From an uncultured Candidatus Saccharibacteria bacterium (lineage in GTDB: Bacteria; Patescibacteriota; Minisyncoccia; Phycocordibacterales; UBA9973): a stretch of 64,000 bases of DNA. Both the position numbers and the translations under genes were made by a program. Below the pieces are notes generated by a model. That model worked only from the letters and a program-made list of their open reading frames with translations, made no database searches and was not told where the DNA came from. Below, in pieces: positions 46,155-61,766 of the stretch (the first letter of the stretch is position 1; each line of letters starts with the position of its first letter). The stretch spans positions 26,727 through 90,726 of the forward strand of contig CAYIBP010000001.1 in the NCBI GenBank assembly GCA_964361705.1, written 5' to 3'.

Positions 46155-46439
46155 TTATAATATATATATATATATATTAGTAAACCTTCTCCAGAAAATA
46201 AAAACTGATTCTTTTAATTTTAAGACAATCAAAGAAAAGACAAGAATTGGAACAGAAATCATCGTAAATATTAAAAACAAATCGAAAGCTTTATTGCATA
46301 TATTATAGATATTTGTTTTTTGACAAAAATCGAAAAAATAATATGGCATTATAAAACGAAAAACAATAAACACTATAGATAAAACAAAGGAAATTGTAGT
46401 TATCTTTTCTTTTGTAAACCACTCAAGTAATTTCTTCAT
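46155..46439 (-). CDS. small membrane protein S1 (paralog of S2/S3, truncated), C-terminus encoded by (TA)8
   Basis: MKKLLEWFTKEKITTISF... aligns with the S2/S3 N-termini (MDKLLEWFTRKRI…). Ends NIYIYIL* where S2/S3 have FIYLFIYLFIYLF. Confidence 0.45.
   Translation of the reverse strand: MKKLLEWFTKEKITTISFVLSIVFIVFRFIMPYYFFDFCQKTNIYNICNKAFDLFLIFTMISVPILVFSLIVLKLKESVFIFWRRFTNIYIYIL
46161..46176. repeat. (TA)8 dinucleotide repeat inside the 3' end of S1
   Basis: Read directly: tatatatatatatata. Confidence 0.8.
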
Positions 46440-46445
46440 AAAATT

Positions 46446-47114
46446 TTAGTTAAATATTAATGTCTGCAAATCAAAAGAAACTGGTAAATATAGTGTGGTA
46501 TTTTCTTTCGGTTCGACTTCTAATTTTTTTGTCTCTGAAATGATTCCGTTAATTTCTTTATCTACATCTAATAATATCATTTCTTGGTTGTTTCCATCTA
46601 TGTTTACTGTGTATTGAACTCCTTCTTTTACAGATATATATTTAGTATTTCCTACTTCCATATATCTTGAATTTGGTATTTCTTCAAATACTTGATTGGT
46701 AGCTTTGTCAAAACCTGTTTTCTTGCCTGTACTGTCCACGATATACATATCACCACCGGAATAGAGATTTAGAACGATGTCAGTGTTTATTTCTGAGAGC
46801 AAGGTTGTGGGACGAGAATTTATTACAATACTTTCTGGATCAGAAAAAGTGTTATTTTGTATTTTTGCCTTTATAAAATTTCTTAGGTTTGAAATTTCCA
46901 AGATATCTTTGTGAGTTCTGTCCTTTGGAAAACTATCCTCTTTCTTCAAATCCACCCACCACCTCTCTACTTTATCAGATGCATTCATCCATAGAGCAGA
47001 TGAAGTGGCTACTGTCTGATCTCCTTCAAAAGTAGTTTTTGTTTTCGAATGAAATTTATCTTTATCAACAATATAATCTATCCCCGCCAAGGTCTTTTCC
47101 CCCCCATCCACCAA
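46446..47114 (-). pseudogene. out-of-frame C-terminal continuation (222 codons) of surface protein A
   Basis: Translation VDGGEKTLAGIDY…DRTHKDILEISNLRNFIKAKIQ… is collinear with the C-termini of proteins B and C, but in a different frame from 47065-49935. Frames diverge at the C7 (plus-strand) homopolymer at 47099-47105. Confidence 0.6.
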
Positions 47115-49912
47115 CTTGTATCACTTTCGTATTTTCTGGAGCTTGCCAGTTATCAAGTATTTGATGCACTTGTTCCGCGTTGTTGTACAAAGTTTCGTTT
47201 CCATTGTTTGGATTGTCCAAATCATCTCCTGTTGGTTTTTCTCTCCCCTCTTTACCAAGAATGAAATCTTTAAACTCCGTGAAATTTGATATTTCATTTC
47301 CGTATTTTTCTGTTTGTTTTGAAAAAAGTTCGTGATTTGGGAAAGTAATTATCTTGTTTAGATTTAAACTAGGATCACCTTGAATATCGAAATATTCCTT
47401 TGAAGGAAGGAGGTTGTATGTTGTGGGCATATTTTCTGCGAGGTATCTTTGGTTTGTGGCAGTCATAACAACACCGTATACTAACCTAGTTCCATGCAGA
47501 AGAGAAAGAAATCCCTCCGGCGTTCCCACTTGTGGTGTAGCTACGAATATCACTTTATCTATTTTATCATACAGTGGATCGTTTTGATCTTTGAGTTTCT
47601 GTATTAATGCCTTGATGACTAGTCCACCATTTGAGTGTCCTATCAGTGTGACTTTTCCTGATTTTGAATTTGATTGCAAATCTCGAAGTTTCTTGAGTAT
47701 GAAAGATTCTGAGAAAGTTTGATCTTCTGTGTATGAGAGTTTGCCTCTTTCTTTTACTTTTCCGTTTGTGATAATGTCATCTAGTGATAAACGCCAATCG
47801 TAAGGAATAAAAGCATAATCATTTATGGTCTTATCTTTTTCTTTCCAGTCTCGTAGATCATCTATGAATGACTGGTAAATATTAATACCATAAGCATCAT
47901 CAACGATTCCTGTTTCATCTGAAAATGAATCGTTTACTGTATCATTTTTAGTGTAAAGGTCTAAAACCTTTTTGCCATTTTCATTCAACGCCATTCTCTT
48001 TTGTTCATCGGGTAAAATTCTGATGGAAACCCACAACTCTTTATCTTCAACGCAATTCATAAACAGATCTTCACAATAATCGGCTGATGGTCCTGGCAGA
48101 GCCTTTACCTCCTCATACAACCTCGAACCCATGATCCCAGGGAAGAACATTACATTTGAGAAACAATCTGTGGTGCAAATAACAGGTGCGACTTCTTGTT
48201 GTTTAGTTTTAAAGTATAGTTTTTCTGACAACCATCCACCTTGGTTTTGAGCGTCTTTCGCTCTGACATGCCAATAGTACAATGATCCTGGATTAAGATT
48301 TGCTGTGTATGAATTTGTGGATATGTCTTCCTTGTCTACTTCAAGGTTTCCTGTAGTCATGTTGCGGACATACAAAGCATATTTTGAAGCTCCGGGTACA
48401 GTGTTCCATGAGAATGCTTGGGTGGTACTTGATATTTCTGGAACAGATGAATTTTTTGCTGTTTCATCTGATGAGAAATACTTACCTGGGGATATTTGTT
48501 CTGGATTCGGTAAATATATATTCTTTGGAGTACAAAGACCATTTAATTCAAATTGGTTCAGATCAAACTCTGATAGAGTAGATGAACAAGCAGGTAACAC
48601 CTTGAATTCATTCGATGTTGCTGTAGCAGAATTGTATGTCGCTGTTAGTTTTACTTGATTTATAGCAGAAGTGAGTTTTACTTTTCCAGAATATTGATTG
48701 CTCTGTATTGTTACAGATTTTGGGTAGATATTTCCCATACTAGATGACAGAGAAATATTTGAACCATTTGGGATATTTTGAGTGTTCAAAATGATATCAA
48801 ATTCAGAACCATTTTGAACTTGAGAAATGTTGTTCCAAGATACTGTGGAGACTCCTGGAGGTGGTGGTGGAATTTCTTTCTTGTTCACAGTGATTGTGAT
48901 GTCTTGTGTGACAGCTTGGCTATTTGATCCTAAACATCTAAAAGTAAATGTCGTAGTCTGATACATCGGTCCGATGTTGTAAGTGGTATTGTGCAAAGGG
49001 TAATTTACTAATCCTGCCCCAGAAATATCACAGGAAGAAGTGTTGGTGCTAGAAAGGGTAAATGTTCCATTCTGTCCTTCTTCCACTGTTTGAGTGGTTG
49101 GAGTTACAGAGATGGTAGGAGTAGCAGGTTCATTGTTTACTATGTAAAAATACCATCTATCTGTGAACCATCCAGAACGACCGAGTGAGTCGTGAGCGTT
49201 TGCGTTCCAGCCGTAACTATGTCCTTTTTGAAGATTTACTGTGCAAGAAGTGGTAGCCAGATTTTGACATACAGGTAATAGTAATCCTCCGTTGTAATAA
49301 TCACGAATATTAATATCGTAAGTGGAAGCTCCTACTGAAGGAGTGATAGTGAATGTTTGGGTTGAAGTCATGACTGAAGCACCATCATCGGGAGAAATTA
49401 GAAATGGTTCCTTTAGATTTGGGTTTGCAGGAGCACAGAGGCCTTCGAGTTTGAATGTTTTCTTTTTGTTTAGATCTATTTTTAATGTTTCCTGTTCTTT
49501 GTTTAAATGTTCATATTCCCCTTCTTCTGCTAGACAGCTTAAGCTAGAGGAAGCGGTGAAGGAGGAGGTACCTACTGTTTGGCCGTTGTATTTTGCTGTG
49601 ATAGTGACGGGTCCATAGGCTGAAGTGATTGTAAACTCTTCGTAGTAGTTCGGATATGGTGGACGGATTGAATTCGGAGAAAGATTGCCCATCGAAAGGT
49701 GTAGGGTTATCTCCTCGGACTGGCTTTCATTTACGGGGATGCCTTCCGTTTTAAAATTGATGAGAAATGTGTCTCCGTTTCTTATGTTTCCAATGTTACC
49801 AAAGGTGACCTTTGGTGTGGTGTTTGAGACATTTACGGTGAAGGGTTGCTGGGCAAAGACTTGTAGTGGTGAAAGTATGAATATGAGAAGAAGGAATGTG
49901 GAAAGGAGATTT

Positions 49913-49935
<23 letters not shown>
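47065..49935 (-). CDS. secreted multidomain surface protein A (Ig/FN3-like repeats + lipase-like alpha/beta-hydrolase domain), frameshifted near 3' end
   Basis: Signal peptide MSQLPKTKNLLSTFLLLIFILSPLQVFA. Lipase-like nucleophile elbow LIGHSNGGLVIKALIQKL and FVATPQVGTPEGF. Homologous to B and to the C-terminal ~1100 aa of C. ORF terminates prematurely after …VIQVGGWGGKDLGGDRLYC* owing to a +1 G in a G-run relative to B. Confidence 0.6.
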
Positions 49936-50344
<409 letters not shown>

Positions 50345-50350
50345 AAAATT

Positions 50351-53293
50351 TTAGTTAAAAGTTAATGCTTGCAAATCAAAAGAAACTGGTAAATCTAATG
50401 TAATCTTTTCTTTTGATTCTATTTGTAATGTCTTTGTTTCTGAAACAATTCCATTCATTTCTTTATCTACATCTAATAGTATCATTTCTTGGTTATTTAC
50501 ATCTATGTGTACTGTGTATTTAGTACCTTCTTGTACAGAGATATACTTAGTATTTCCTATTTCCATGTATCTGGAATTTGGTATTTCTTCAAAAACCTGA
50601 CCTGTGGTTTTATCGAAACCTGTCTTTCTGCCGTCATTATCAGTGACATACATTTCACCCCCAGAATATAGGTTTAGAACTATATCAGTATTTACCTCTG
50701 AAAGAGAGGTTGCGGGACGGGAGTTTATGACGATGTTTTCTGGGTCAGAAAAAGAAGTATCTTGTATTCTTGCCTTTAAAAAATTTCTTAGATTTGAGAC
50801 TTCTAGAATGTTTTTATGTGACTTGTCTGGAAAACTTTCTTCATTATAACTCTTCAAATCCACCCACCACCTCTCTACCCTGTCAGAGGTATTAATCCAC
50901 AAAGAAGATGAAATAGCCACGGTTTCATCTCCTTCCTTTGTCGTTCTAGCCTTTGGATACATAGTCCTATTGGAAGGAGGACAGTTGAGAGGTAAACAAC
51001 CAGTTGATTTTGTTCCATACTCTATCCCTGCCAATGTCTTCTCCCCCCATCCCCCTACCTGTATCACTTTTGTATTTTCCGGTGCTTGCCAGTTATCAAG
51101 TATTTGATGCACTTGTTCCGCGTTGTTGTACAGATTTTCATTGCCATTGTTTGCATTGTCTAGGTCATCCCCTGTTGGTTTTTCTCTTCCTTCTTTACCT
51201 AGAATGAAATCTTTAAACTCTGTGAAATTTGATATTTCTGTACCATATTTCTCTGTTTGTTTGGAAAATAGTTCGTGATTTGGGAAAGTTATTATCTTGT
51301 TCAGATTTAATGAAGGATCACCTTGGATGTCGAAGTACCCTTTTGATGGGAGTAGATTGTATGTGGTGGGCATATTCTCTGCGAGATACCTATTGTTTGT
51401 GGCGGTCATCACAGCTCCAAAAGCAGCTAATCTAGTGCCATGTAATAAAGAAAGAAATCCTTCCGGAGTTCCCACTTGCGGAGTGGCTACTAATATTACT
51501 TTATCTATCTGATTGTAAAGAGGATCGTTTGCATCTTTTAATTTTTGTATTAAGGCTTTGATCACCAATCCTCCGTTTGAATGGCCTATCAATGTGACTT
51601 TACCTGATTTTGAATTTGATTGCAGATCTCGAAGTTTCTTAAGAATGAAAGACTCGGAAAAGTTTTGTGAGTCAGCATATGATAGCTTGTTTCTTTCCCC
51701 CACTTTTCCATTAGTGATGATATCTTCGAGTGATAATCTCCAATCGTAAGGCACTAATGAGTAGTCTGTTATCACATTACTATTTTTCAAATCCTTCAGA
51801 TCATCAGCAAAAGATTTGTAAATATTAAGACCTATGAAGCCTGGAACTTCTTCTACTAATCCTTTGTCTTCTTTTGTGTAAATATCGTAGATCTTCTTGC
51901 CATTCGAATCTAATGCCATTCTTCTATGATCATCATGCAAGGCAGCAAGAGAGACCCACAACTCTTTATCCCAGAAACATTCACTGCCGTTTAGTACTTC
52001 ACCACAATCCAATGAACCTTTCTCCTCATACAACCTCGACCCCATAATCCCAGGAAAGAACATAACATTTGAAAAACAGTCTGTGGTGCAGGTAGTAGGG
52101 ACAATTTCTTGGGATTTAGTTTTAAAGTATAGTTTTTCTGATAACCATCCACCTTGATTGTTGCTGTCTTTAGCTCTGATGTGCCAGTAGTACAATGATC
52201 CTGGATTTAGATTTGCTGTATATGAGTTTGTAGATATGTCTTCTTTGTCTACTTCAAGGTTTCCTGTTGTCATATTACGAACATACAGTGCATATTTTGT
52301 AGCTCCGGAGACTGTTGTCCATTTGAAAGTCTGGGTTGTAGAGTCTACTTCCTCCCCTGTCCAGGCCTTGCCTGGACTTAGGGGTTCCGGATTCTGTAGA
52401 TATATATTCTTCGGAGTACACAAACCAGAAAGCTCAAATTCAGATAGTTCGAGTTCTGAAAGAGAAGAATAACATGTAGGATCAATATCGAATGTATTTG
52501 AAGTTGTTAAAACATTTCCATTGTACGAGACTTTTAATTTCACTTTGTTGATAGCTGAAGTTACTTTGATATTTCCTGTATAAGTATTGTTCTGTATTGT
52601 TACTGTCTTTGGAATCACAGTCCCCATAGCAAAAAGTGGTTGGTCTTCATCATTTGGGACACCGAAAGAAGTGAGTTCAAGATTCGTTCCATCTGCAATA
52701 TTTGTGGTATTGATCGTTATCGGAAAAAGTTCGCTCGTTTTGGTATTTAAGATTTGAGAGATGATGGCTGTGGGGATGCCTGGTGGTGGTACCACTTCTT
52801 TCTTGTTCACAGTGATAATGATGTCTTGAGATACTGCTTGGCCATTTGATCCAATACATCTGAAAGTAAATATGGCAGTTCGATACATAGGTCCAATACC
52901 GTAATCACCATTAGCAAGACGGTGGTTTACGAGTCCAGCTCCTGTTATGTCACAAGAAGTGGTATTAGTGGAAGAAAGAACAAAGCTTCCGTCTGTTCCT
53001 TCCTCTATTGTTTGAGTTGTGGGAGTTACTGATATTGTAGGTGGAGTGTTGGGATTTTGAGATCTAACATTAAAATACTTTCTGTCTGCAAACCATCCTG
53101 ATCTATTTTGAGAATCAAAGGCATTAGCATTCCATGTGTAGTTGTGTCCTTCTTTTAAGACTACATCTACAAATTGACCTGTAGTTTTGTAGACAGTGAG
53201 TTCATTGTTTACAGAGATGTCTCTGATATTTACTTCATATCTGATAGCGTTGGGGACATATGCTATCTCTAGGGTTTGATTTGGTCCATACAC
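50351..53293 (-). CDS. secreted multidomain surface protein B (5'-truncated copy of the C-terminal half of C)
   Basis: Listed ORF starts at GTG, but the frame stays open upstream into the adjacent IS-like element, so there is no native signal peptide. Contains GHSNGG lipase-like domain and Ig/FN3-like repeats. Residues ~1-730 are identical or nearly identical to the corresponding part of C. Confidence 0.5.
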   Translation of the reverse strand: MYGPNQTLEIAYVPNAIRYEVNIRDISVNNELTVYKTTGQFVDVVLKEGHNYTWNANAFDSQNRSGWFADRKYFNVRSQNPNTPPTISVTPTTQTIEEGTDGSFVLSSTNTTSCDITGAGLVNHRLANGDYGIGPMYRTAIFTFRCIGSNGQAVSQDIIITVNKKEVVPPPGIPTAIISQILNTKTSELFPITINTTNIADGTNLELTSFGVPNDEDQPLFAMGTVIPKTVTIQNNTYTGNIKVTSAINKVKLKVSYNGNVLTTSNTFDIDPTCYSSLSELELSEFELSGLCTPKNIYLQNPEPLSPGKAWTGEEVDSTTQTFKWTTVSGATKYALYVRNMTTGNLEVDKEDISTNSYTANLNPGSLYYWHIRAKDSNNQGGWLSEKLYFKTKSQEIVPTTCTTDCFSNVMFFPGIMGSRLYEEKGSLDCGEVLNGSECFWDKELWVSLAALHDDHRRMALDSNGKKIYDIYTKEDKGLVEEVPGFIGLNIYKSFADDLKDLKNSNVITDYSLVPYDWRLSLEDIITNGKVGERNKLSYADSQNFSESFILKKLRDLQSNSKSGKVTLIGHSNGGLVIKALIQKLKDANDPLYNQIDKVILVATPQVGTPEGFLSLLHGTRLAAFGAVMTATNNRYLAENMPTTYNLLPSKGYFDIQGDPSLNLNKIITFPNHELFSKQTEKYGTEISNFTEFKDFILGKEGREKPTGDDLDNANNGNENLYNNAEQVHQILDNWQAPENTKVIQVGGWGEKTLAGIEYGTKSTGCLPLNCPPSNRTMYPKARTTKEGDETVAISSSLWINTSDRVERWWVDLKSYNEESFPDKSHKNILEVSNLRNFLKARIQDTSFSDPENIVINSRPATSLSEVNTDIVLNLYSGGEMYVTDNDGRKTGFDKTTGQVFEEIPNSRYMEIGNTKYISVQEGTKYTVHIDVNNQEMILLDVDKEMNGIVSETKTLQIESKEKITLDLPVSFDLQALTFN

Positions 53294-53305
53294 TATTTCA
53301 GGATT
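51112..53305. repeat. ~2.2-kb near-identical direct repeat, copy 1 (matches 55424-57617)
   Basis: Constant offset of 4312 bp; identical sub-ORFs (51229-51435 = 55541-55747; 52236-52472 = 56548-56784). Boundaries judged by eye from flanking mismatches. Confidence 0.75.
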
Positions 53306-53428
53306 GTTTTTGTCTTCTGAACCAGGACTTACTAGATATGGTTCTGCTAGATTTGGGTTTGGTGGAACGCAGAGACCTTCGAGTCCATACCGGGTATGGA
53401 CAGTGTTGGTGTTTAGGTTGATGAGAAG

Positions 53429-54156
53429 AAGGGTGTCAGGTACCCTTTCTAGGTCTCCAGGGTAAACGAATTGTCGCTTCCAATCTAAATTTCTTAATAA
53501 TCTTCATCGACCAATCATCACTTCCATAAGGCTTCCCTTTCGTCACCGAATGTCTAATAGTTTCTTCCTCTTCACTAGGTTGTGATTCATTGACTAGTGA
53601 TAGATAATTATTGGGTTTTGATATAGGCCAATCTGATAACAATTTCTTTTGTTCGGTACTTCCATGTATTTTACGCCACAAACTAGAGAATCTCCAATTT
53701 TCTGCCTTTCGTACCAATTTAGCGCGAAGAGGATTACGTTCAACATAACGAATGACTGAGAGCAGATGATTATCTTTTTCAACAATAAATGATTTGTAAC
53801 GACCTTGATAAAGATGGCCTGTACCCTTTGTGTTTTTTTCTTGGTGCCAACGCTGAGTATGTGTCAATGTAAGCCATTGCATAAATTTACATAGATCTCC
53901 GTCACTTTTTGGATAAAGGACAAGATGAAAATGATTTGGCATTAGTATGTATGCAAGAATACGCATATTATACTTATCTTTTGCTTCTTCTAAGACATTT
54001 TCAAATAGAGTGTAATCTTCTTCTTTAAAGAAGATCGGTAGACGCGCGTTTGCGCGATTGATAACATGATAACAATATTCACCAATATCTGTACGTAGAA
54101 CTCTTCCCATATTTTGATTATATCAGATTTTAATTAAAAGGGTACCTGACACCCTT
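53429..54156. mobile_element. compact IS-like unit: HUH/Y1 transposase gene flanked by perfect 20-bp terminal inverted repeats
   Basis: Left end AAGGGTGTCAGGTACCCTTT (53429-53448) and right end AAAGGGTACCTGACACCCTT (54137-54156) are exact reverse complements. They enclose the transposase ORF 53436-54110. Confidence 0.65.
53436..54110 (-). CDS. IS200/IS605-family-like Y1 (HUH) transposase, RAYT/TnpA_REP-like
   Basis: HUH motif MPNHFHLVLYP and catalytic Tyr region GHLYQGRYKSFIV; 224 aa, in the size range of REP-associated tyrosine transposases. Confidence 0.7.
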   Translation of the reverse strand: MGRVLRTDIGEYCYHVINRANARLPIFFKEEDYTLFENVLEEAKDKYNMRILAYILMPNHFHLVLYPKSDGDLCKFMQWLTLTHTQRWHQEKNTKGTGHLYQGRYKSFIVEKDNHLLSVIRYVERNPLRAKLVRKAENWRFSSLWRKIHGSTEQKKLLSDWPISKPNNYLSLVNESQPSEEEETIRHSVTKGKPYGSDDWSMKIIKKFRLEATIRLPWRPRKGT

Positions 54157-54239
54157 ACCTTCAGCAACTTGTATTATTTTGATCCATACTTTTTCATTCT
54201 AATTATTATTAATCTAAATTTATTGCAGAAAAAAGATTT

Positions 54240-54656
<417 letters not shown>

Positions 54657-54662
54657 TGTATT

Positions 54663-57600
54663 TTAGTTAATTGTTAATGCTTGCAAATCAAAAGTAGCAG
54701 ACAAGTCTAGTGTAATTCTTTCTTTTGATTCTGTTTGTAATGACTTCGTTTCTGAAACAATTCCATTTATTTCTTTATCTACATCTAATAATATCATTTC
54801 TTGGTTATTTCCATCTATGTGTACTGTGTATTTAATGCCTTCTTCTACAGAAATGTATTTTGTATTTCCTACTTCCATGTATCTGGAGTTTGGAATTTCT
54901 TCTTTCGTCTCTCCATTTACTATACCTGTAATTCTACCTGTACTATCTGATATATACACATAGCCTCCAGAATAAAGATTCAGAACAATGTCTGTTTTCA
55001 TTTCTGAAAGAGAATAATTGGGTTTTGAATTTACAATTATATTTTCTGGATCGGAAAATGAAGCATCTTTAATCTCTGCCTTTATAAAATTTCTTAAATT
55101 AGAAACCTCGAGGATATCTTTATGCGTTCTGTCTTTTTCAAAAAATCCTCCCTCTTTCTTCAAATCTACCCACCATCGTTCTGTGTTAGCATCTGTATTC
55201 ATCCAAAGGGCAGAGGATGTTACTACTGTTTCATCGCCTTCAAAGGAGGTCTTTGTTTTAGGGAAAGGTTTTATAATTGGAATCCCGCAAATACCAAACT
55301 CACATTTTTCACCATATTTTTTAGCCATATACTCTATACCTGCAAATGTTTTTATCCCCCACCCCGCAACCTGTATCACCTTCGTATTTTCTGGAGCTTG
55401 CCAATTATCTAGCATTTGATGAATCTTTTCAGCGTTGTTGTACAGATTTTCATTGCCATTGTTTGCATTGTCTAGGTCATCCCCTGTTGGTTTTTCTCTT
55501 CCTTCTTTACCTAGAATGAAATCTTTAAACTCTGTGAAATTTGATATTTCTGTACCATATTTCTCTGTTTGTTTGGAAAATAGTTCGTGATTTGGGAAAG
55601 TTATTATCTTGTTCAGATTTAATGAAGGATCACCTTGGATGTCGAAGTACCCTTTTGATGGGAGTAGATTGTATGTGGTGGGCATATTCTCTGCGAGATA
55701 CCTATTGTTTGTGGCGGTCATCACAGCTCCAAAAGCAGCTAATCTAGTGCCATGTAATAAAGAAAGAAATCCTTCCGGAGTTCCCACTTGCGGAGTGGCT
55801 ACTAATATTACTTTATCTATCTGATTGTAAAGAGGATCGTTTGCATCTTTTAATTTTTGTATTAAGGCTTTGATCACCAATCCTCCGTTTGAATGGCCTA
55901 TCAATGTGACTTTACCTGATTTTGAATTTGATTGCAGATCTCGAAGTTTCTTAAGAATGAAAGACTCGGAAAAGTTTTGTGAGTCAGCATATGATAGCTT
56001 GTTTCTTTCCCCCACTTTTCCATTAGTGATGATATCTTCGAGTGATAATCTCCAATCGTAAGGCACTAATGAGTAGTCTGTTATCACATTACTATTTTTC
56101 AAATCCTTCAGATCATCAGCAAAAGATTTGTAAATATTAAGACCTATGAAGCCTGGAACTTCTTCTACTAATCCTTTGTCTTCTTTTGTGTAAATATCGT
56201 AGATCTTCTTGCCATTCGAATCTAATGCCATTCTTCTATGATCATCATGCAAGGCAGCAAGAGAGACCCACAACTCTTTATCCCAGAAACATTCACTGCC
56301 GTTTAGTACTTCACCACAATCCAATGAACCTTTCTCCTCATACAACCTCGACCCCATAATCCCAGGAAAGAACATAACATTTGAAAAACAGTCTGTGGTG
56401 CAGGTAGTAGGGACAATTTCTTGGGATTTAGTTTTAAAGTATAGTTTTTCTGATAACCATCCACCTTGATTGTTGCTGTCTTTAGCTCTGATGTGCCAGT
56501 AGTACAATGATCCTGGATTTAGATTTGCTGTATATGAGTTTGTAGATATGTCTTCTTTGTCTACTTCAAGGTTTCCTGTTGTCATATTACGAACATACAG
56601 TGCATATTTTGTAGCTCCGGAGACTGTTGTCCATTTGAAAGTCTGGGTTGTAGAGTCTACTTCCTCCCCTGTCCAGGCCTTGCCTGGACTTAGGGGTTCC
56701 GGATTCTGTAGATATATATTCTTCGGAGTACACAAACCAGAAAGCTCAAATTCAGATAGTTCGAGTTCTGAAAGAGAAGAATAACATGTAGGATCAATAT
56801 CGAATGTATTTGAAGTTGTTAAAACATTTCCATTGTACGAGACTTTTAATTTCACTTTGTTGATAGCTGAAGTTACTTTGATATTTCCTGTATAAGTATT
56901 GTTCTGTATTGTTACTGTCTTTGGAATCACAGTCCCCATAGCAAAAAGTGGTTGGTCTTCATCATTTGGGACACCGAAAGAAGTGAGTTCAAGATTCGTT
57001 CCATCTGCAATATTTGTGGTATTGATCGTTATCGGAAAAAGTTCGCTCGTTTTGGTATTTAAGATTTGAGAGATGATGGCTGTGGGGATGCCTGGTGGTG
57101 GTACCACTTCTTTCTTGTTCACAGTGATAATGATGTCTTGAGATACTGCTTGGCCATTTGATCCAATACATCTGAAAGTAAATATGGCAGTTCGATACAT
57201 AGGTCCAATACCGTAATCACCATTAGCAAGACGGTGGTTTACGAGTCCAGCTCCTGTTATGTCACAAGAAGTGGTATTAGTGGAAGAAAGAACAAAGCTT
57301 CCGTCTGTTCCTTCCTCTATTGTTTGAGTTGTGGGAGTTACTGATATTGTAGGTGGAGTGTTGGGATTTTGAGATCTAACATTAAAATACTTTCTGTCTG
57401 CAAACCATCCTGATCTATTTTGAGAATCAAAGGCATTAGCATTCCATGTGTAGTTGTGTCCTTCTTTTAAGACTACATCTACAAATTGACCTGTAGTTTT
57501 GTAGACAGTGAGTTCATTGTTTACAGAGATGTCTCTGATATTTACTTCATATCTGATAGCGTTGGGGACATATGCTATCTCTAGGGTTTGATTTGGTCCA

Positions 57601-60600
57601 TACACTATTTCAGGATTATTCTTGTCTTCTCTACCAGGACTGACTAGATACGGCTCCCCTAGGTCAGGATTCTGTGGAAGGCACAGACCTTCGAGTGAAG
57701 ATAAGGATTTGATTTCTCCTTTTTCAAGATCAATGAAACTTGCTAGGTCTTGCCTAGCAAGATCTGTATCTGCTAGACATCCTGCTCCGCTTGAGACGGT
57801 GAAAGAATTTGAAATGCCTACAAGCTCAAATTTACTGCCAGCTGTGTTTGCTCTGTAATATGCTCCTATTATGATGCTTCCTGTAGCTGAAGTGATGGTA
57901 AAAGGAACGGTATTTACTGTACCTGTGGTAATGATATGTTGAGGGTTAATATTTCCCATCAATGGAACGATATCAATGACTGATCCAACTGGAATGTTTT
58001 GAGTTGTGAGGGTTATCGTGTTTGTGTCGCCATTTCTTGTGTTTGGGATATTGCTAAAGGTCACCTTTGGTAAGGTGTTTGAGACATTTACGGTGAAATT
58101 TTGCTGTATAGAGGAACCATTTAATCCTACACATTTCATGGTAAAGGTCTTACTCGTGAACATAGCACGTGTAGGATAGCGTCCGTTTAGCGAACCAGCA
58201 AGAGTGTACAAAAATCCTGTCGCGTCCCAGACAGAGCAAGAAGATGTGTATGTAGTCGTCAAATCATACAGAGCCTGTTCTCCATAACCCACAGTCTGTA
58301 CAGCAGGAGTAACGGACATAGTAGGTGGTTGCAGTGGAGGGGTTTTTACCGTGACATAATTACAAGGAGAATATCCCAAAGTTAATCCAGGATAGTCAAA
58401 AGCTCTGACAGAAATGCAATAGCTCCCGACAGCACTATATGTGTGTCCAGCAAACTCTGGAGTTCCGGAAGAATTGAAAGCAGTAGAACCCATAGTGCCG
58501 TCACCCCAGTTGATCTGATACCAGATTCTATCGCCTTCTCCATCTGTGGAGACCATAGAAATATTGTAGTTGTTGTTTACATTCACACTGCCCGATCCAG
58601 AGATAGTTGGCACAGAAGGTGGAGTGTTTTGTGAAGGTTGTGTTTGGAAATAGTAATAAGGTGGATAAAGAGAAGTACCGACAGCATTCACGCTTCTGAC
58701 ACCCCAAACATATCTGTGACCTAGAGCAAGCGCAGGCGAAGTGGTAGATGTGCCATACACAGTTCTATCTTTAAAAATATCTAAACCTGTAGTGAGATCA
58801 GCTATATATGCTAAATAATGAGTAGCATTTGAAACAGGATTCCAAGAAATGGTCACAGTATTTCCTGAAAGTATAGGACCGTAAGCAGAAGTATAACCAG
58901 GAGTGAGACCTGTCGGTGTCGCAGGTACTGTGGCAGGATTTATGACAGTGAAATAAAATAATGAAGAAAAAACTCCCTTTGTGCCGTTGGACTCATAGGC
59001 TACCATATTCCATCGGTATGATCTGCCGGGGATGAAAGAATAATTTGGAGTAAAATTCGTACCATAATTGCACGAAGGCCAATTGCAATCCACTATCAAT
59101 TCATTTGTTACATTATCTCTGACATGTACACCGTATTGCAAAGCACCGGAAACAGCAGACCAATAAAATGTAACTTTACCATTTGTATGTGCGACAGATA
59201 TCCCCGGCTGAACTACACTACCCGGAGCGAGGAGTTGTGGCGCAGACAATGCTTGCAGGCTAAAAGTATCCGGCACAAATGTTTTTGGATCGATTATCTC
59301 GCCTGCTTTGGATTGAGGATTTATAGAGTTGCCTTCAGTGTCTTTTTTGAGTTTTATATCTATCTCACTTTGTGAAAGTTTTGCGCCAGAGAGAGAACGA
59401 CCGCCACCGAATACTTTTCCGTTTTTAGAATAGCTGGCAAGAGTGGGAATTTTCGGTAATTGTTCTATCGCTTTTTTGGCATCAATATTGTCATTTGATT
59501 TTGCCACCAAATAAGCGGAAATTATCGGTGCGGAAAATGAAGTACCATTCATTTCTCCATATTCGCCTCCTGATTTTGCAGAGAGTATTCCCACACCTTC
59601 AGCAAACACATCCACTGTTTTTCCATAGTTTGAAAATGAAGCTATGTTTCCAGAACCATCGAGTGCGCCGACTGTAATCAGGTTGCCATTATTGAAACTC
59701 GCTGGATATATTTTTGTCTCATCAATATTGAAACCATAATTTCCAGCAGAAGTCACCATATATACTCCGTGATCCTGCGCATACCTTATCGCTTCTTCGA
59801 GTTGCTTTGAATATGTAGGCCCTGCAAAAGACATGTTTATTATTTCCGCTCCGTTGTGCACCGCGAAAAGTATCGCTCGCACTATATCATCTGTCTGTAA
59901 TAGTCCATAATCCGCCACGCGTAGAGACATTATCTTTACATTGCCTCTGGATACAGAAGATATGCCCATACCATCATCAGCCGATGCTCCGATGATAGAT
60001 GCCACCGCCGTGCCGTGTGAATATCCGTCTGTCGGATATGGGTCTTTGTCATCCCCTACGAAATCATACCCACCATCGCAAGAACCTATTGCTTCTGTTT
60101 TTTCATTTACACAATTCTGTGTCGTCCATTTTGAAAGAAATAGATCGGGGTGAGAAAAATCCACTCCAGCATCTATCACCGCCACCACAGGCAATGAACC
60201 TGTATTTGCTTTTGTATTCCAAATCTTTTTATTTGTTTCTAAAATACGATGCAGATATGTCTGCTTGTGCCACAGAGGGTCGTTGGGAGTATAGTCCCCC
60301 GCCTTCTCCGGGGCAAGTTGCAAAGCCATAAAATACGGGCTTTCCACTGCACCACCCCCTTCTTTTTCCACTTCTGTTGCAAGCTGTTGGTTGATTTGTT
60401 TTAGGGTTTCAAAGGCTCCAGCATCACTGATTTTTTGTCCTTGCGCCCTTCCCTCGATTACAGGGGCGGATCCCTCGGGCAGCAAAAAATCAGTAATGCT
60501 TGCGCTTGCCTTTATTTTCGCATTTTCTTTTATTATTTGTATTTCTTTTTCAACGCTCGCAACTTCGCTCGCTTTCATTTTGTTCACATCGAGAGCCTGC

Positions 60601-61766
60601 AAACCGTTTAAAATATTGAAAAGTCTGTTTGCTTTCTCGGAATTTATATCCCGTTCCTCTTTTGGAGTTTTCTTGTTTTTTGGAATTTTTGTTTTTACGG
60701 CAACAGGAATAGTTGGATCGTAAAAACCCTGTAGTTCACCATCACTATTTTTCACCAAAAGGCTTTGCGCTTTTTTCAAGAGATCGACAACATTGTCCAC
60801 TTCGGCTTGCGTATTCTCTGTAGTTAATTTGTTGTTAGCTTCCAATACTAATATATATGCATTCCAAGAGTCTTCTGTATAACTATTCTTGGCTTCTGTC
60901 GGCACTTGTTCTAATACTTTTCTGTATTCTGTTAGATCCGCTTTGATAACGATAGAATTTTGTGCTTCGGATATTTTTTGTGTTGCTTCATCTACCCTAT
61001 TTTGAGTATCTTCTGTGTTTACTGCGTTAGTATCTAAAACATTTTTGTATATATTCCAGCTAGTATTTGTATATAGATATGAAAAAGATTCTGGATATGC
61101 CAAGAGCACACCGTTGTATGAATTCAGGTTTGATTTTTTTAGAAGTAAGCTCTGCCCTATTTTGATATTGTTTACTGCTGTGTCTATTTCAGCTTGAGTA
61201 TTGTCTGTGGTAACGATGTTTGTATTCAAGGCTTGCTGATATGTTTGCCAGCTCGTATTGGTATAATTTACGGATGCAGTATCGGGATAATTCAAAATCA
61301 CAGCGCTATATTCTGACAAATCCCCCTTTGGTTTCGGAGGAATTATCTCTCCCTCTATTACTATGCCATCTGTTAGAACAATAATAGGAGAACCGTGGTG
61401 AGCGGTACAATCATTGCCACCGTAAGCTTTCAGTAATACAGTATATTTTCCTGGTCTAGATGGAGCCTTTATCTGAAACTTTATTGTGGCTGTAGTACCT
61501 GCTTTGTGGTTTGCTGTATCTATGCATATCCATTCGTTGTTGCCTATTTTGTATTTAGTGGAGAACCAGTTTGACGGAGAGGTGGAGGTTACCGTCATAT
61601 TCACATTTACCATAGCGTTTCCCTTTACTATTACGCTTTGTTTGCCTCCGAGGTTGGCAGAGTCTATGATGCGAGCGGCAGAAACCTGGGGAACGATGGA
61701 TACCAAAGGGCTAAAAGCTGTAATAAGCAACAAAACCGAAATCGAAAAATTCTTGAAAATACGCAT
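54663..61766 (-). CDS. giant secreted multidomain protein C (2367 aa): Ig-like N-terminal domain, 3 FIVAR-like repeats, subtilisin-like S8 peptidase domain, FN3-like and PKD-like domains, lipase-like alpha/beta-hydrolase domain
   Basis: Signal peptide MRIFKNFSISVLLLITAFSPLVSIVPQVSA. S8 catalytic triad context (VAVIDAGVDFSHPD; GYSHGTAVASIIGA; NGTSFSAPIISAYL). PKD-like YQINWGDGTMG…GHTYSAVGSYCISVRAFDY. Lipase-like LIGHSNGGLVIKALIQKL and LVATPQVGTPEGF. FIVAR-like YTNTSWQTYQQALNTNIVTTDNTQAEIDTAVNNI. Confidence 0.7.
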   Translation of the reverse strand: MRIFKNFSISVLLLITAFSPLVSIVPQVSAARIIDSANLGGKQSVIVKGNAMVNVNMTVTSTSPSNWFSTKYKIGNNEWICIDTANHKAGTTATIKFQIKAPSRPGKYTVLLKAYGGNDCTAHHGSPIIVLTDGIVIEGEIIPPKPKGDLSEYSAVILNYPDTASVNYTNTSWQTYQQALNTNIVTTDNTQAEIDTAVNNIKIGQSLLLKKSNLNSYNGVLLAYPESFSYLYTNTSWNIYKNVLDTNAVNTEDTQNRVDEATQKISEAQNSIVIKADLTEYRKVLEQVPTEAKNSYTEDSWNAYILVLEANNKLTTENTQAEVDNVVDLLKKAQSLLVKNSDGELQGFYDPTIPVAVKTKIPKNKKTPKEERDINSEKANRLFNILNGLQALDVNKMKASEVASVEKEIQIIKENAKIKASASITDFLLPEGSAPVIEGRAQGQKISDAGAFETLKQINQQLATEVEKEGGGAVESPYFMALQLAPEKAGDYTPNDPLWHKQTYLHRILETNKKIWNTKANTGSLPVVAVIDAGVDFSHPDLFLSKWTTQNCVNEKTEAIGSCDGGYDFVGDDKDPYPTDGYSHGTAVASIIGASADDGMGISSVSRGNVKIMSLRVADYGLLQTDDIVRAILFAVHNGAEIINMSFAGPTYSKQLEEAIRYAQDHGVYMVTSAGNYGFNIDETKIYPASFNNGNLITVGALDGSGNIASFSNYGKTVDVFAEGVGILSAKSGGEYGEMNGTSFSAPIISAYLVAKSNDNIDAKKAIEQLPKIPTLASYSKNGKVFGGGRSLSGAKLSQSEIDIKLKKDTEGNSINPQSKAGEIIDPKTFVPDTFSLQALSAPQLLAPGSVVQPGISVAHTNGKVTFYWSAVSGALQYGVHVRDNVTNELIVDCNWPSCNYGTNFTPNYSFIPGRSYRWNMVAYESNGTKGVFSSLFYFTVINPATVPATPTGLTPGYTSAYGPILSGNTVTISWNPVSNATHYLAYIADLTTGLDIFKDRTVYGTSTTSPALALGHRYVWGVRSVNAVGTSLYPPYYYFQTQPSQNTPPSVPTISGSGSVNVNNNYNISMVSTDGEGDRIWYQINWGDGTMGSTAFNSSGTPEFAGHTYSAVGSYCISVRAFDYPGLTLGYSPCNYVTVKTPPLQPPTMSVTPAVQTVGYGEQALYDLTTTYTSSCSVWDATGFLYTLAGSLNGRYPTRAMFTSKTFTMKCVGLNGSSIQQNFTVNVSNTLPKVTFSNIPNTRNGDTNTITLTTQNIPVGSVIDIVPLMGNINPQHIITTGTVNTVPFTITSATGSIIIGAYYRANTAGSKFELVGISNSFTVSSGAGCLADTDLARQDLASFIDLEKGEIKSLSSLEGLCLPQNPDLGEPYLVSPGREDKNNPEIVYGPNQTLEIAYVPNAIRYEVNIRDISVNNELTVYKTTGQFVDVVLKEGHNYTWNANAFDSQNRSGWFADRKYFNVRSQNPNTPPTISVTPTTQTIEEGTDGSFVLSSTNTTSCDITGAGLVNHRLANGDYGIGPMYRTAIFTFRCIGSNGQAVSQDIIITVNKKEVVPPPGIPTAIISQILNTKTSELFPITINTTNIADGTNLELTSFGVPNDEDQPLFAMGTVIPKTVTIQNNTYTGNIKVTSAINKVKLKVSYNGNVLTTSNTFDIDPTCYSSLSELELSEFELSGLCTPKNIYLQNPEPLSPGKAWTGEEVDSTTQTFKWTTVSGATKYALYVRNMTTGNLEVDKEDISTNSYTANLNPGSLYYWHIRAKDSNNQGGWLSEKLYFKTKSQEIVPTTCTTDCFSNVMFFPGIMGSRLYEEKGSLDCGEVLNGSECFWDKELWVSLAALHDDHRRMALDSNGKKIYDIYTKEDKGLVEEVPGFIGLNIYKSFADDLKDLKNSNVITDYSLVPYDWRLSLEDIITNGKVGERNKLSYADSQNFSESFILKKLRDLQSNSKSGKVTLIGHSNGGLVIKALIQKLKDANDPLYNQIDKVILVATPQVGTPEGFLSLLHGTRLAAFGAVMTATNNRYLAENMPTTYNLLPSKGYFDIQGDPSLNLNKIITFPNHELFSKQTEKYGTEISNFTEFKDFILGKEGREKPTGDDLDNANNGNENLYNNAEKIHQMLDNWQAPENTKVIQVAGWGIKTFAGIEYMAKKYGEKCEFGICGIPIIKPFPKTKTSFEGDETVVTSSALWMNTDANTERWWVDLKKEGGFFEKDRTHKDILEVSNLRNFIKAEIKDASFSDPENIIVNSKPNYSLSEMKTDIVLNLYSGGYVYISDSTGRITGIVNGETKEEIPNSRYMEVGNTKYISVEEGIKYTVHIDGNNQEMILLDVDKEINGIVSETKSLQTESKERITLDLSATFDLQALTIN
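55424..57617. repeat. ~2.2-kb near-identical direct repeat, copy 2 (matches 51112-53305)
   Basis: See copy 1. Confidence 0.75.

Follow-up and report, generated by a model that had tools for sequence, protein, structure and literature searches.

The stretch of DNA analysed here (the window, 64,000 nucleotides of contig CAYIBP010000001.1 from an uncultured Candidatus Saccharibacteria bacterium) contains three paralogous cassettes in tandem on the minus strand, in the order C-S3-RAYT-B-S2-A. Each of them comprises a large secreted LCAT-like hydrolase with Ig-like domains (A, B and C) followed by a small membrane protein (S1, S2 and S3), and a RAYT-class transposase gene flanked by two copies of a short hairpin is found between B and S3. 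We have found that B and C share an internal tract of 2186 bp without a single mismatch (51120-53305 and 55432-57617, at a constant offset of 4312), and we conclude, with a probability of about 75%, that this tract was made by gene conversion and that, separately, the transposase unit was inserted in B.

A probable gene conversion tract shared by B and C

The locus presents the signature of gene conversion, that is, a tract of identity with diverged homology in register on both sides and a third paralog that is equidistant from the other two. Outside the tract B and C are 77-84% identical with the register kept, A and B 77-86%, and A and C about 79-80%; inside it, A is 73-81% identical to the sequence shared by B and C. 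The edges are sharp, as the first mismatches are at 51119 and 53306 and the adjoining 50-100 bp are already only 66-88% identical. Over the 87 bp from 53306 to 53392, B/C and A/B identity is 76.5% in each case. Because A is 73-82% identical to both B and C, inside as well as outside the tract, B and C are not young duplicates. Since the three genes are old and at similar distances from one another, and homogenisation is confined to an internal part of B and C whose flanks are in register, we favour a non-reciprocal homologous exchange. A recent event of this kind between B and C would have made the 2.2-kb internal segment identical while the flanks kept their old paralog divergence, at about 80% identity. 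Two other origins were rejected: a recent duplication, after which the whole unit would be identical, and a single unequal crossover, which would leave one junction only.

A preliminary description of this DNA had already noticed the near-identical segment and attributed its identical core and diverged flanks to recent gene conversion or duplication. The segment is real, and conversion agrees with the nearly equal distances among the three paralogs outside it. The end of the tract proposed there (53305/57617) is correct, while the proposed start at 51112 is 8 nt early, with mismatches at 51110-51119.

Ectopic conversion between paralogs is well known in bacteria, as in the homogenisation of tufA and tufB or the transfer from pilS to pilE in Neisseria. 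The B/C pair is similar to these cases in its internal identity tract, its diverged flanks and its mosaic patches in common with the third copy, A. It differs from them in that we found no sign of a dedicated mechanism or of selected variation, and in that one partner (B) is truncated and probably a dead gene. Exchange among A, B and C would have been either recurrent or patchy. Neither the tract nor the transposase element, which is of the RAYT/TIRtron type, is new in kind. The locus is a clear case, in a Patescibacteria genome, of tandem paralogs of a large secreted enzyme that evolve in concert, and recombination in such reduced genomes is little documented.

The transposase unit interrupts B

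The perfect 20-nt inverted repeat that had been described around the transposase gene (53429-53448 / 54137-54156) is present, and it reaches 32 nt at 84% complementarity. The whole hairpin-gene-hairpin unit measures 728 bp. On one side of it, the homology of B to A and C stops at 53384 in local alignments, near the point that had been given (53392) but not at it. On the far side, 54295-54228 aligns with 49968-49901, which is the S2/A junction. Between these limits, 450 bp of A (49900-49451) have no counterpart in B, which carries instead 843 bp (53385-54227) made up of the unit and two segments of 44 and 71 bp. Because the ATG of B and 11 codons survive beyond the unit, the unit sits as an interruption within B and is not the junction of a duplication. 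We propose that the unit was inserted separately into the 5' coding part of B, with the loss of about 450 bp, and that this event would have deprived B of a start codon and of a signal peptide. In fact, the frame of B contains an in-frame TGA inside the transposase gene (53504-53506) and has no start codon until the GTG at 53293. The earlier view that B has no usable start and was truncated by the element is in agreement with these data. The insertion would also set the end of the B/C homology, and with it the outer limit for any conversion tract.

Two further features were noted at the borders of the inserted block. A small perfect palindrome, CCATAC-CGG-GTATGG (53385-53400), lies exactly where the homology of B to A and C ends. 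The 7-nt direct repeat TCCATAC, found on both sides of the block (again at 54183-54189), was considered as a target-site duplication and judged compatible with chance. A homology search with B for an ortholog with an empty site yielded none among 20 relatives, the best of which was 69% identical and partial.

Comparison with other assemblies

The locus was compared with assembled contigs from the Hainich groundwater series in ENA, which come from other samples of the same aquifer population and on which the transposase protein was found. One contig of 2236 bp (L001, sample H52_01um_R2) corresponds to window positions 53251-55486 and consists of a unique spacer of 2126 bp, containing S3, the RAYT gene, the 5' flank of B and the 3' flank of C, with exactly 55 nt of tract at each end. 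Two more contigs (L067 and L068) begin at 51174, again 55 nt into the tract, here from its opposite end. A k = 55 graph would break at just this distance from a genuine repeat boundary, and the junction of the spacer with tract sequence on either side requires two tract copies (or a circle). Furthermore, contigs L066 and L071 (H52_01um_R3) and L072 (H51_01um_R2, 105.7 kb) span C-S3-RAYT-B-S2-A with the order unchanged.

Over 12.4 kb, 68 differences separate L072 from the window, and all fall in two clusters: 34 at 51461-51602 and the same 34 at +4312. Outside this 142-bp patch there are 0 differences in 12.1 kb. The two alleles of the patch (allele 1 in the window, allele 2 in L072) diverge by 24%, and most of the differences are a multiple of three apart. 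In its 3' half, allele 2 has a single mismatch to paralog A, compared to 13 for allele 1, and its 5' half is unlike either. Another contig, L073, enters the tract from the spacer and ends at the first patch positions with an allele-2 base. Allele 1 was found in assemblies from well H52 and allele 2 in those from well H51, the numbers being tiny. No record matched the B product exactly, whether its first residue was taken as V or as M, and a neighbour look-up for more of the L072 contig returned short contigs only.

These data can be read as a partial assembly collapse, in which B and C are near-identical but differ in the patch, and possibly in a few single-nucleotide polymorphisms (SNPs), and the de Bruijn assembler removed the bubble, so that one branch was written twice. 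The real structure would then be two identical tracts of 341 and 1703 bp around an unconverted A-like island. The restriction of all differences between L072 and the window to the patch, alike in both copies, resembles the same strain assembled through the other branch; the stop of L073 at an allele-2 base and the paralog-like, mostly third-codon spacing of the differences point in the same direction. However, no recovered contig has B and C differing in the patch, and the separation of the alleles by well, with such small numbers, fits a strain polymorphism equally well. We consider a partial collapse a real possibility, at odds somewhat short of even. A polymorphism between strains, with both tract copies re-homogenised within each of them, also fits; the lack of any other difference in 12.1 kb speaks rather for the collapse. 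On either reading, the patch is further evidence for mosaic exchange among the three paralogs. The comparison of assemblies exposed a hidden alternative patch, and its practical lesson is that exact identity within long repeats of short-read metagenome assemblies should not be trusted at face value.

Some points weigh against the account of conversion plus insertion given above. Short-read assemblers write a collapsed repeat twice, and the patch and sparse SNPs could truly differ between B and C. Neither B nor C stands out as the donor of the conversion, as A is equally distant (73-82%) from both everywhere. The insertion with its deletion is inferred from paralog A alone. As for the element, no hairpin copy was found in the window beyond the two that flank the gene (up to 3 mismatches allowed), and the hairpin energies, -4 to -5.7 kcal/mol with z-scores of -0.7 to -1.1 against shuffles, are not unusual.

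Is the transposase related to the conversion?

The preliminary description had placed the transposase exactly at the duplication breakpoint and suggested that the element mediated the rearrangement. Neither proposal fits the coordinates, since the tract ends at 53305 and is followed by 79 bp of diverged homology (53306-53384) and 44 bp of other sequence before the hairpin, the start of B persists at 54262-54228, and the other end of the tract (51120) has no element. A more specific version would be that the transposase caused the conversion by nicking the downstream hairpin beside B, the lesion being repaired from C. HUH enzymes do nick single-stranded DNA, duplication join-points in enterobacteria have been reported to carry REP sequences, and the tract, which extends in the direction away from the hairpin, begins 124 bp from it. 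However, the homologous bases nearest to a break at the hairpin should be the first to be converted, and those 79 bp are unconverted; moreover, there is no homology beyond the putative break, a mosaic patch involving A lies 1.8 kb away and the far end of the tract lacks any element. A causal role of the RAYT element in the conversion is therefore not supported, and we regard it as improbable.

The locus could also be a system of programmed variation, in which the truncated B and the frameshifted A act as silent donors to an expressed C and repeats in the partner genes add phase variation. One complete gene does stand beside two partial copies deficient in promoter or start, the copies show mosaic exchange, S2 and S3 carry perfect (TTTA)10 repeats and the frame of A shifts where seven G stand in a row. 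Against this, about 10 assemblies revealed two alleles of one patch only and equal repeat counts in all contigs, a dedicated recombination signal was not found, the frame of S1 contains stops, and A and B have the appearance of genes in decay. We give this explanation little credit. Still further from the data is a combination of both ideas, in which the RAYT nicks its own hairpin and so drives repeated conversion, giving an ultra-small episymbiont a surface variation system built from a domesticated transposase, silent cassettes and simple-repeat switches; this we regard as highly improbable. Finally, that the whole repeat is a single copy duplicated by mis-assembly is very unlikely, the least probable of these readings: its sole support is that short reads cannot span an exact repeat of 2.2 kb, while an independent contig (L001) joins the spacer to the tract at both ends, the outer flanks are distinct and diverged paralog sequences and the same order is found in at least five assemblies, among them the spanning contigs L066, L071 and L072.

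The transposase

As judged from its sequence, the 224-aa gene is a RAYT-class (class 2 TnpAY1) transposase. It matches Pfam Y1_Tnp with 64 bits (1.7e-17), in agreement with its earlier designation as a Y1 HUH transposase, and the NCBIfam model REP_Tyr_transpos (NF047646) over its full length with 78.6 bits (E = 4e-22), slightly below the cutoff of 80. The IS200 profile gives 20 bits against a cutoff of 55. The only match in the PDB is E. coli TnpAREP, 4ER8 (E = 1e-3), with which the HUH motif aligns and to whose Tyr115, presumably the nucleophile, Y122 within RYVERNP corresponds. The motif GRYKS, previously taken for the tyrosine motif, does not contain this residue and belongs to a conserved LYQGRY found in 119 of 120 homologs; PNHFH is conserved in 113 of the 120. 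The protein also has a conserved C-terminal extension of about 75 aa, and KGT or KST forms the C-terminus in 112 of its 120 closest homologs. There are thousands of homologs of equal length, the named ones being mostly from Patescibacteria, and a search of plasmids gave matches of at most 40% identity only.

A scan for two-hexamer promoters upstream of the gene found none. There is, just downstream of the upstream hairpin and 7-9 nt before the ATG, an extended -10 element similar to TGnTAnnAT (TGATATAAT in the window, within 54111-54136). When the equivalent regions of L002, L006, L009, L020 and L044 were compared, this element was present in the low-GC relatives and in two high-GC ones, which suggests a leaderless or near-leaderless transcript with possible autoregulation at the hairpin.

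The hairpin and its distribution

The hairpin unit (AAGGGTGTCAGGTACCCTT) can fold in each arm as AAGGGT-loop-ACCCTT. With up to 3 mismatches, only two matches to the inverted repeat exist in the window, and 0 of 100 shuffled sequences gave two. In the sense of the gene, the downstream arm is AAG GGT ACC TGA, which are the last three codons of the transposase and its stop, and this coding of K-G-T-stop may explain part of the constraint on the hairpin. Rfam gave no family match in the window. The 5' flank of the hairpin is rich in purines and the 3' flank in pyrimidines, with nothing more; an extension of the stem by covarying flanking bases was rejected, as 79 distinct copies showed no excess of pairing between -1 to -7 and +1 to +7 in a shuffle test. 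A GTAG within 20 nt 5' of the hairpin occurs in 4 of the 79 copies, neither of the window arms among them, and the canonical REP foot GT[AG]G is thus not a feature of this family. TAGG is enriched about 5-fold near the hairpin but is found in 10 of the 79 copies only.

In the nine copies of the gene that were examined (the window and eight relatives, six from Patescibacteria and two from Acidobacteriota), one hairpin lies 25-45 nt before the ATG and the other across the stop codon, which the downstream arm contains in 9/9; the upstream arm of L045 is degenerate. Three close relatives, with copies about 80% identical (L002, L006 and L009), have the gene in three unrelated neighbourhoods.

The repeat is not restricted to the window, since an exact 19-mer search of GTDB genomes, one per species, found it at 54 loci, for each of which a flanking stretch of up to 8 kb was considered. 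No RAYT-family match was present in that stretch at 45 of the 54; at seven loci a close homolog of 49-65% identity lay next to hairpin copies or between them, four of these gene copies being from a single Acidobacteriota genome, and the remaining two had a distant match of 26-28% alone. The loci include solo copies, clusters and inverted doublets 43-117 bp apart. Most are from Acidobacteriota, and the others from Paceibacterota, Saccharibacteria and a few further lineages. Solo copies or doublets occur in Paceibacterota (L012, L019, L025, L027 and L060), in Saccharibacteria (L022) and in many Acidobacteriota; at L025, one doublet of 84 bp is present twice, 646 bp apart, in intergenic DNA. By analogy with TnpAREP, the enzyme would bind and cut the hairpin in single-stranded DNA, and it would mobilise the solo hairpins and inverted doublets of related genomes.

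Some individual loci deserve mention. The 19-nt hairpin is base-identical between Patescibacteria and Acidobacteriota (L012-L065 compared to window 53429-53447), where the transposases are 49-65% identical. Single matches to the 19-mer were found in Armatimonadia, a deltaproteobacterium and Neobacillus. The Acidobacteriota metagenome-assembled genome MFD01476.bin.2.37 has at least four hairpin-gene-hairpin units, in two tandem pairs with differing outer flanks (L044 5043-7353 and L061 2733-5309); such a multiplication of the unit is a behaviour similar to that of insertion sequences (IS) and atypical for RAYTs of the E. coli type. In front of many hairpin copies there are between one and four partial copies of the 5' half in tandem (aaagggtgtcagg...), and other copies have repeats of the 3' half (caggtaccctt...) behind them. 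These partial copies were seen at L016, L017, L023, L028, L031, L036, L039, L047, L048, L055-L059 and L062, at L002 10680-10740 and at L006 5235-5340, and possible origins are aborted cleavage and joining, or slippage. L006 has three full hairpins after the stop codon of the transposase. At L025 (3731-3830, Paceibacteria), the inverted doublet is bounded by GTAGGGGAT...ATCCCTAC, that is, by a GTAG foot on both sides, and the TAG within this foot is the stop codon of the upstream gene.

Comparison with known elements

RAYT relatives with terminal inverted repeats (TIRs) instead of GTAG REPs have been described as TIRtrons, with TIRYT transposases. Their repeats share a GGGGWSAS motif (GGGG[AT][CG]A[CG]), the 3' repeat overlaps the gene, and the repeat families, of moderate abundance, comprise singles, dimers and clusters, with a sharply defined group in Acidobacteria (Di Nocera et al. 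2013, PMC3733652). Most TIRYTs belong to subclass 2.1 of TnpAY1, with a Y---NP motif and a C-terminal extension, to which the RAYT Group 1 of Bertels has been mapped (Quentin et al. 2018, PMC6006769); this group has the widest distribution and is the most IS-like of the true RAYTs (Bertels et al. 2017, PMC5581495). The element described here resembles TIRtrons in a transposase longer than the core domain, in terminal inverted repeats at fixed distances with the 3' one overlapping the gene end, and in repeats that also occur as singles, dimers and clusters with a wide and patchy distribution among phyla. The published motif is found in L002 and L006 as GGGGTCAG (8/8) and in the window as GGTGTCAG (7/8, with one mismatch). 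The element differs from TIRtrons in its Patescibacteria host and in that the repeat is itself a short hairpin with a stem of 6-7 bp. Moreover, the TIRYT extension resembles helix-turn-helix (HTH) domains (Bac_DnaA_C, HTH_23 and HTH_28), whereas a Pfam search with the extension of the window protein gave no match, HTH included, even at E = 10.

With the E. coli REPtron (TnpAREP/YafM, 4ER8, and its REP/BIME (REPIN) sequences) the element has in common the HUH and Y---NP tyrosine motifs, the sole PDB match, and a gene bracketed by inverted palindromic units that also occur solo and as inverted doublets in related genomes. The similarity to that protein is weak (E = 1e-3), however, and there is neither a consistent GTAG foot nor more than modest copy numbers. 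IS200/IS605 elements are also of the Y1 HUH superfamily and have hairpins at their ends, but the IS200 profile score falls well short of its cutoff, the tyrosine motif is that of class 2 (Y---NP) and not Y----Q, the ends in the window are perfect inverted repeats and not two different subterminal hairpins on the same strand, and there is no tnpB. From its sequence features, the element fits the TIRtron/REPtron kind and, as far as the published description goes, subclass 2.1. Its likeness to REPtrons had been pointed out before, and the REP_Tyr_transpos and IS200 scores, the hairpins flanking homologs and the solo copies and doublets elsewhere agree with it. The accompanying remark that such units are rarely discussed outside Proteobacteria is only partly true, as TIR-flanked RAYT relatives in Acidobacteria and other phyla were published in 2013 and 2018 (PMC3733652, PMC6006769). 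We found no account of these elements in Patescibacteria in the literature; the RAYT family with TIR or hairpin flanks, which has been described from Acidobacteria and Proteobacteria, is common in this group.

Layout of the locus

The features of the locus are collected in Table 1. The genes between 44 and 64 kb of the window are on the minus strand. Only cassette C is intact, as A is frameshifted and B lacks its 5' end.

Table 1. Positions in the window of the hydrolase cassettes, the identical tract and the transposase unit
Feature	Positions	Strand	Description
Paralog A	46446..49935	-	Signal peptide; frameshifted, main open reading frame (ORF) 49935->47065, tail ORF 47114-46446
S2	49913..50344	-	Small membrane partner of B; in-frame perfect (TTTA)10
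Paralog B, truncated (longest ORF)	50351..53293	-	980 aa, GTG start, no signal peptide
Identical tract, B copy	51120..53305	-	Ig-like repeats and most of the LCAT-like alpha/beta-hydrolase domain
142-bp patch in the tract	51461..51602 (twin 55773-55914)	-	Alternative allele in L072; covers the GHSNG nucleophile elbow
Diverged homologous 5' flank of the tract in B	53306..53384	-	Last B sequence alignable to A and C
Segment between end of B homology and hairpin	53385..53428		44 bp, no alignment to A or C; holds palindrome CCATACCGGGTATGG
Downstream hairpin arm	53429..53448	+	AAGGGTGTCAGGTACCCTTT; gene strand carries last codons K-G-T and TGA stop
RAYT-class Y1 HUH transposase	53436..54110 (54110->53436)	-	224 aa; HUH motif PNHFHLV, Y---NP motif RYVERNP
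Upstream hairpin arm	54137..54156	-	26 nt before ATG; TGATATAAT between arm and ATG
Segment between upstream hairpin and B start remnant	54157..54227		71 bp, no alignment to A
Remnant of the original B start	54228..54262	-	ATG (54262) and 11 codons (MFQRLQTKNLFS); homologous to A start 49935-49901
S3	54240..54656	-	Small membrane partner of C; in-frame perfect (TTTA)10
Paralog C	54663..61766	-	2367 aa; signal peptide, S8 peptidase, PKD/Ig-like domains, LCAT-like alpha/beta hydrolase
Identical tract, C copy	55432..57617	-	About codons 1384-2112 of C

The frameshift in A is located at a G7 run (near 47095, within about 47085-47100) where B has G6, and the frame resumes in the tail ORF; it was seen again in the independent contig L066. 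S1, the partner of A, has two in-frame stops. The tetranucleotide repeats of S2 and S3 appear on the plus strand as (TAAA)10 at 50062-50102 and 54391-54432, and in frame they encode FIYLFIYLFIYLF within a hydrophobic segment. They look like a slipped-strand switch, although the repeat count is unchanged in every contig from other samples. Outside the repeat, S2 and S3 are about 79% identical, and the equivalent site of S1 (46156-46177) is (TA)11.

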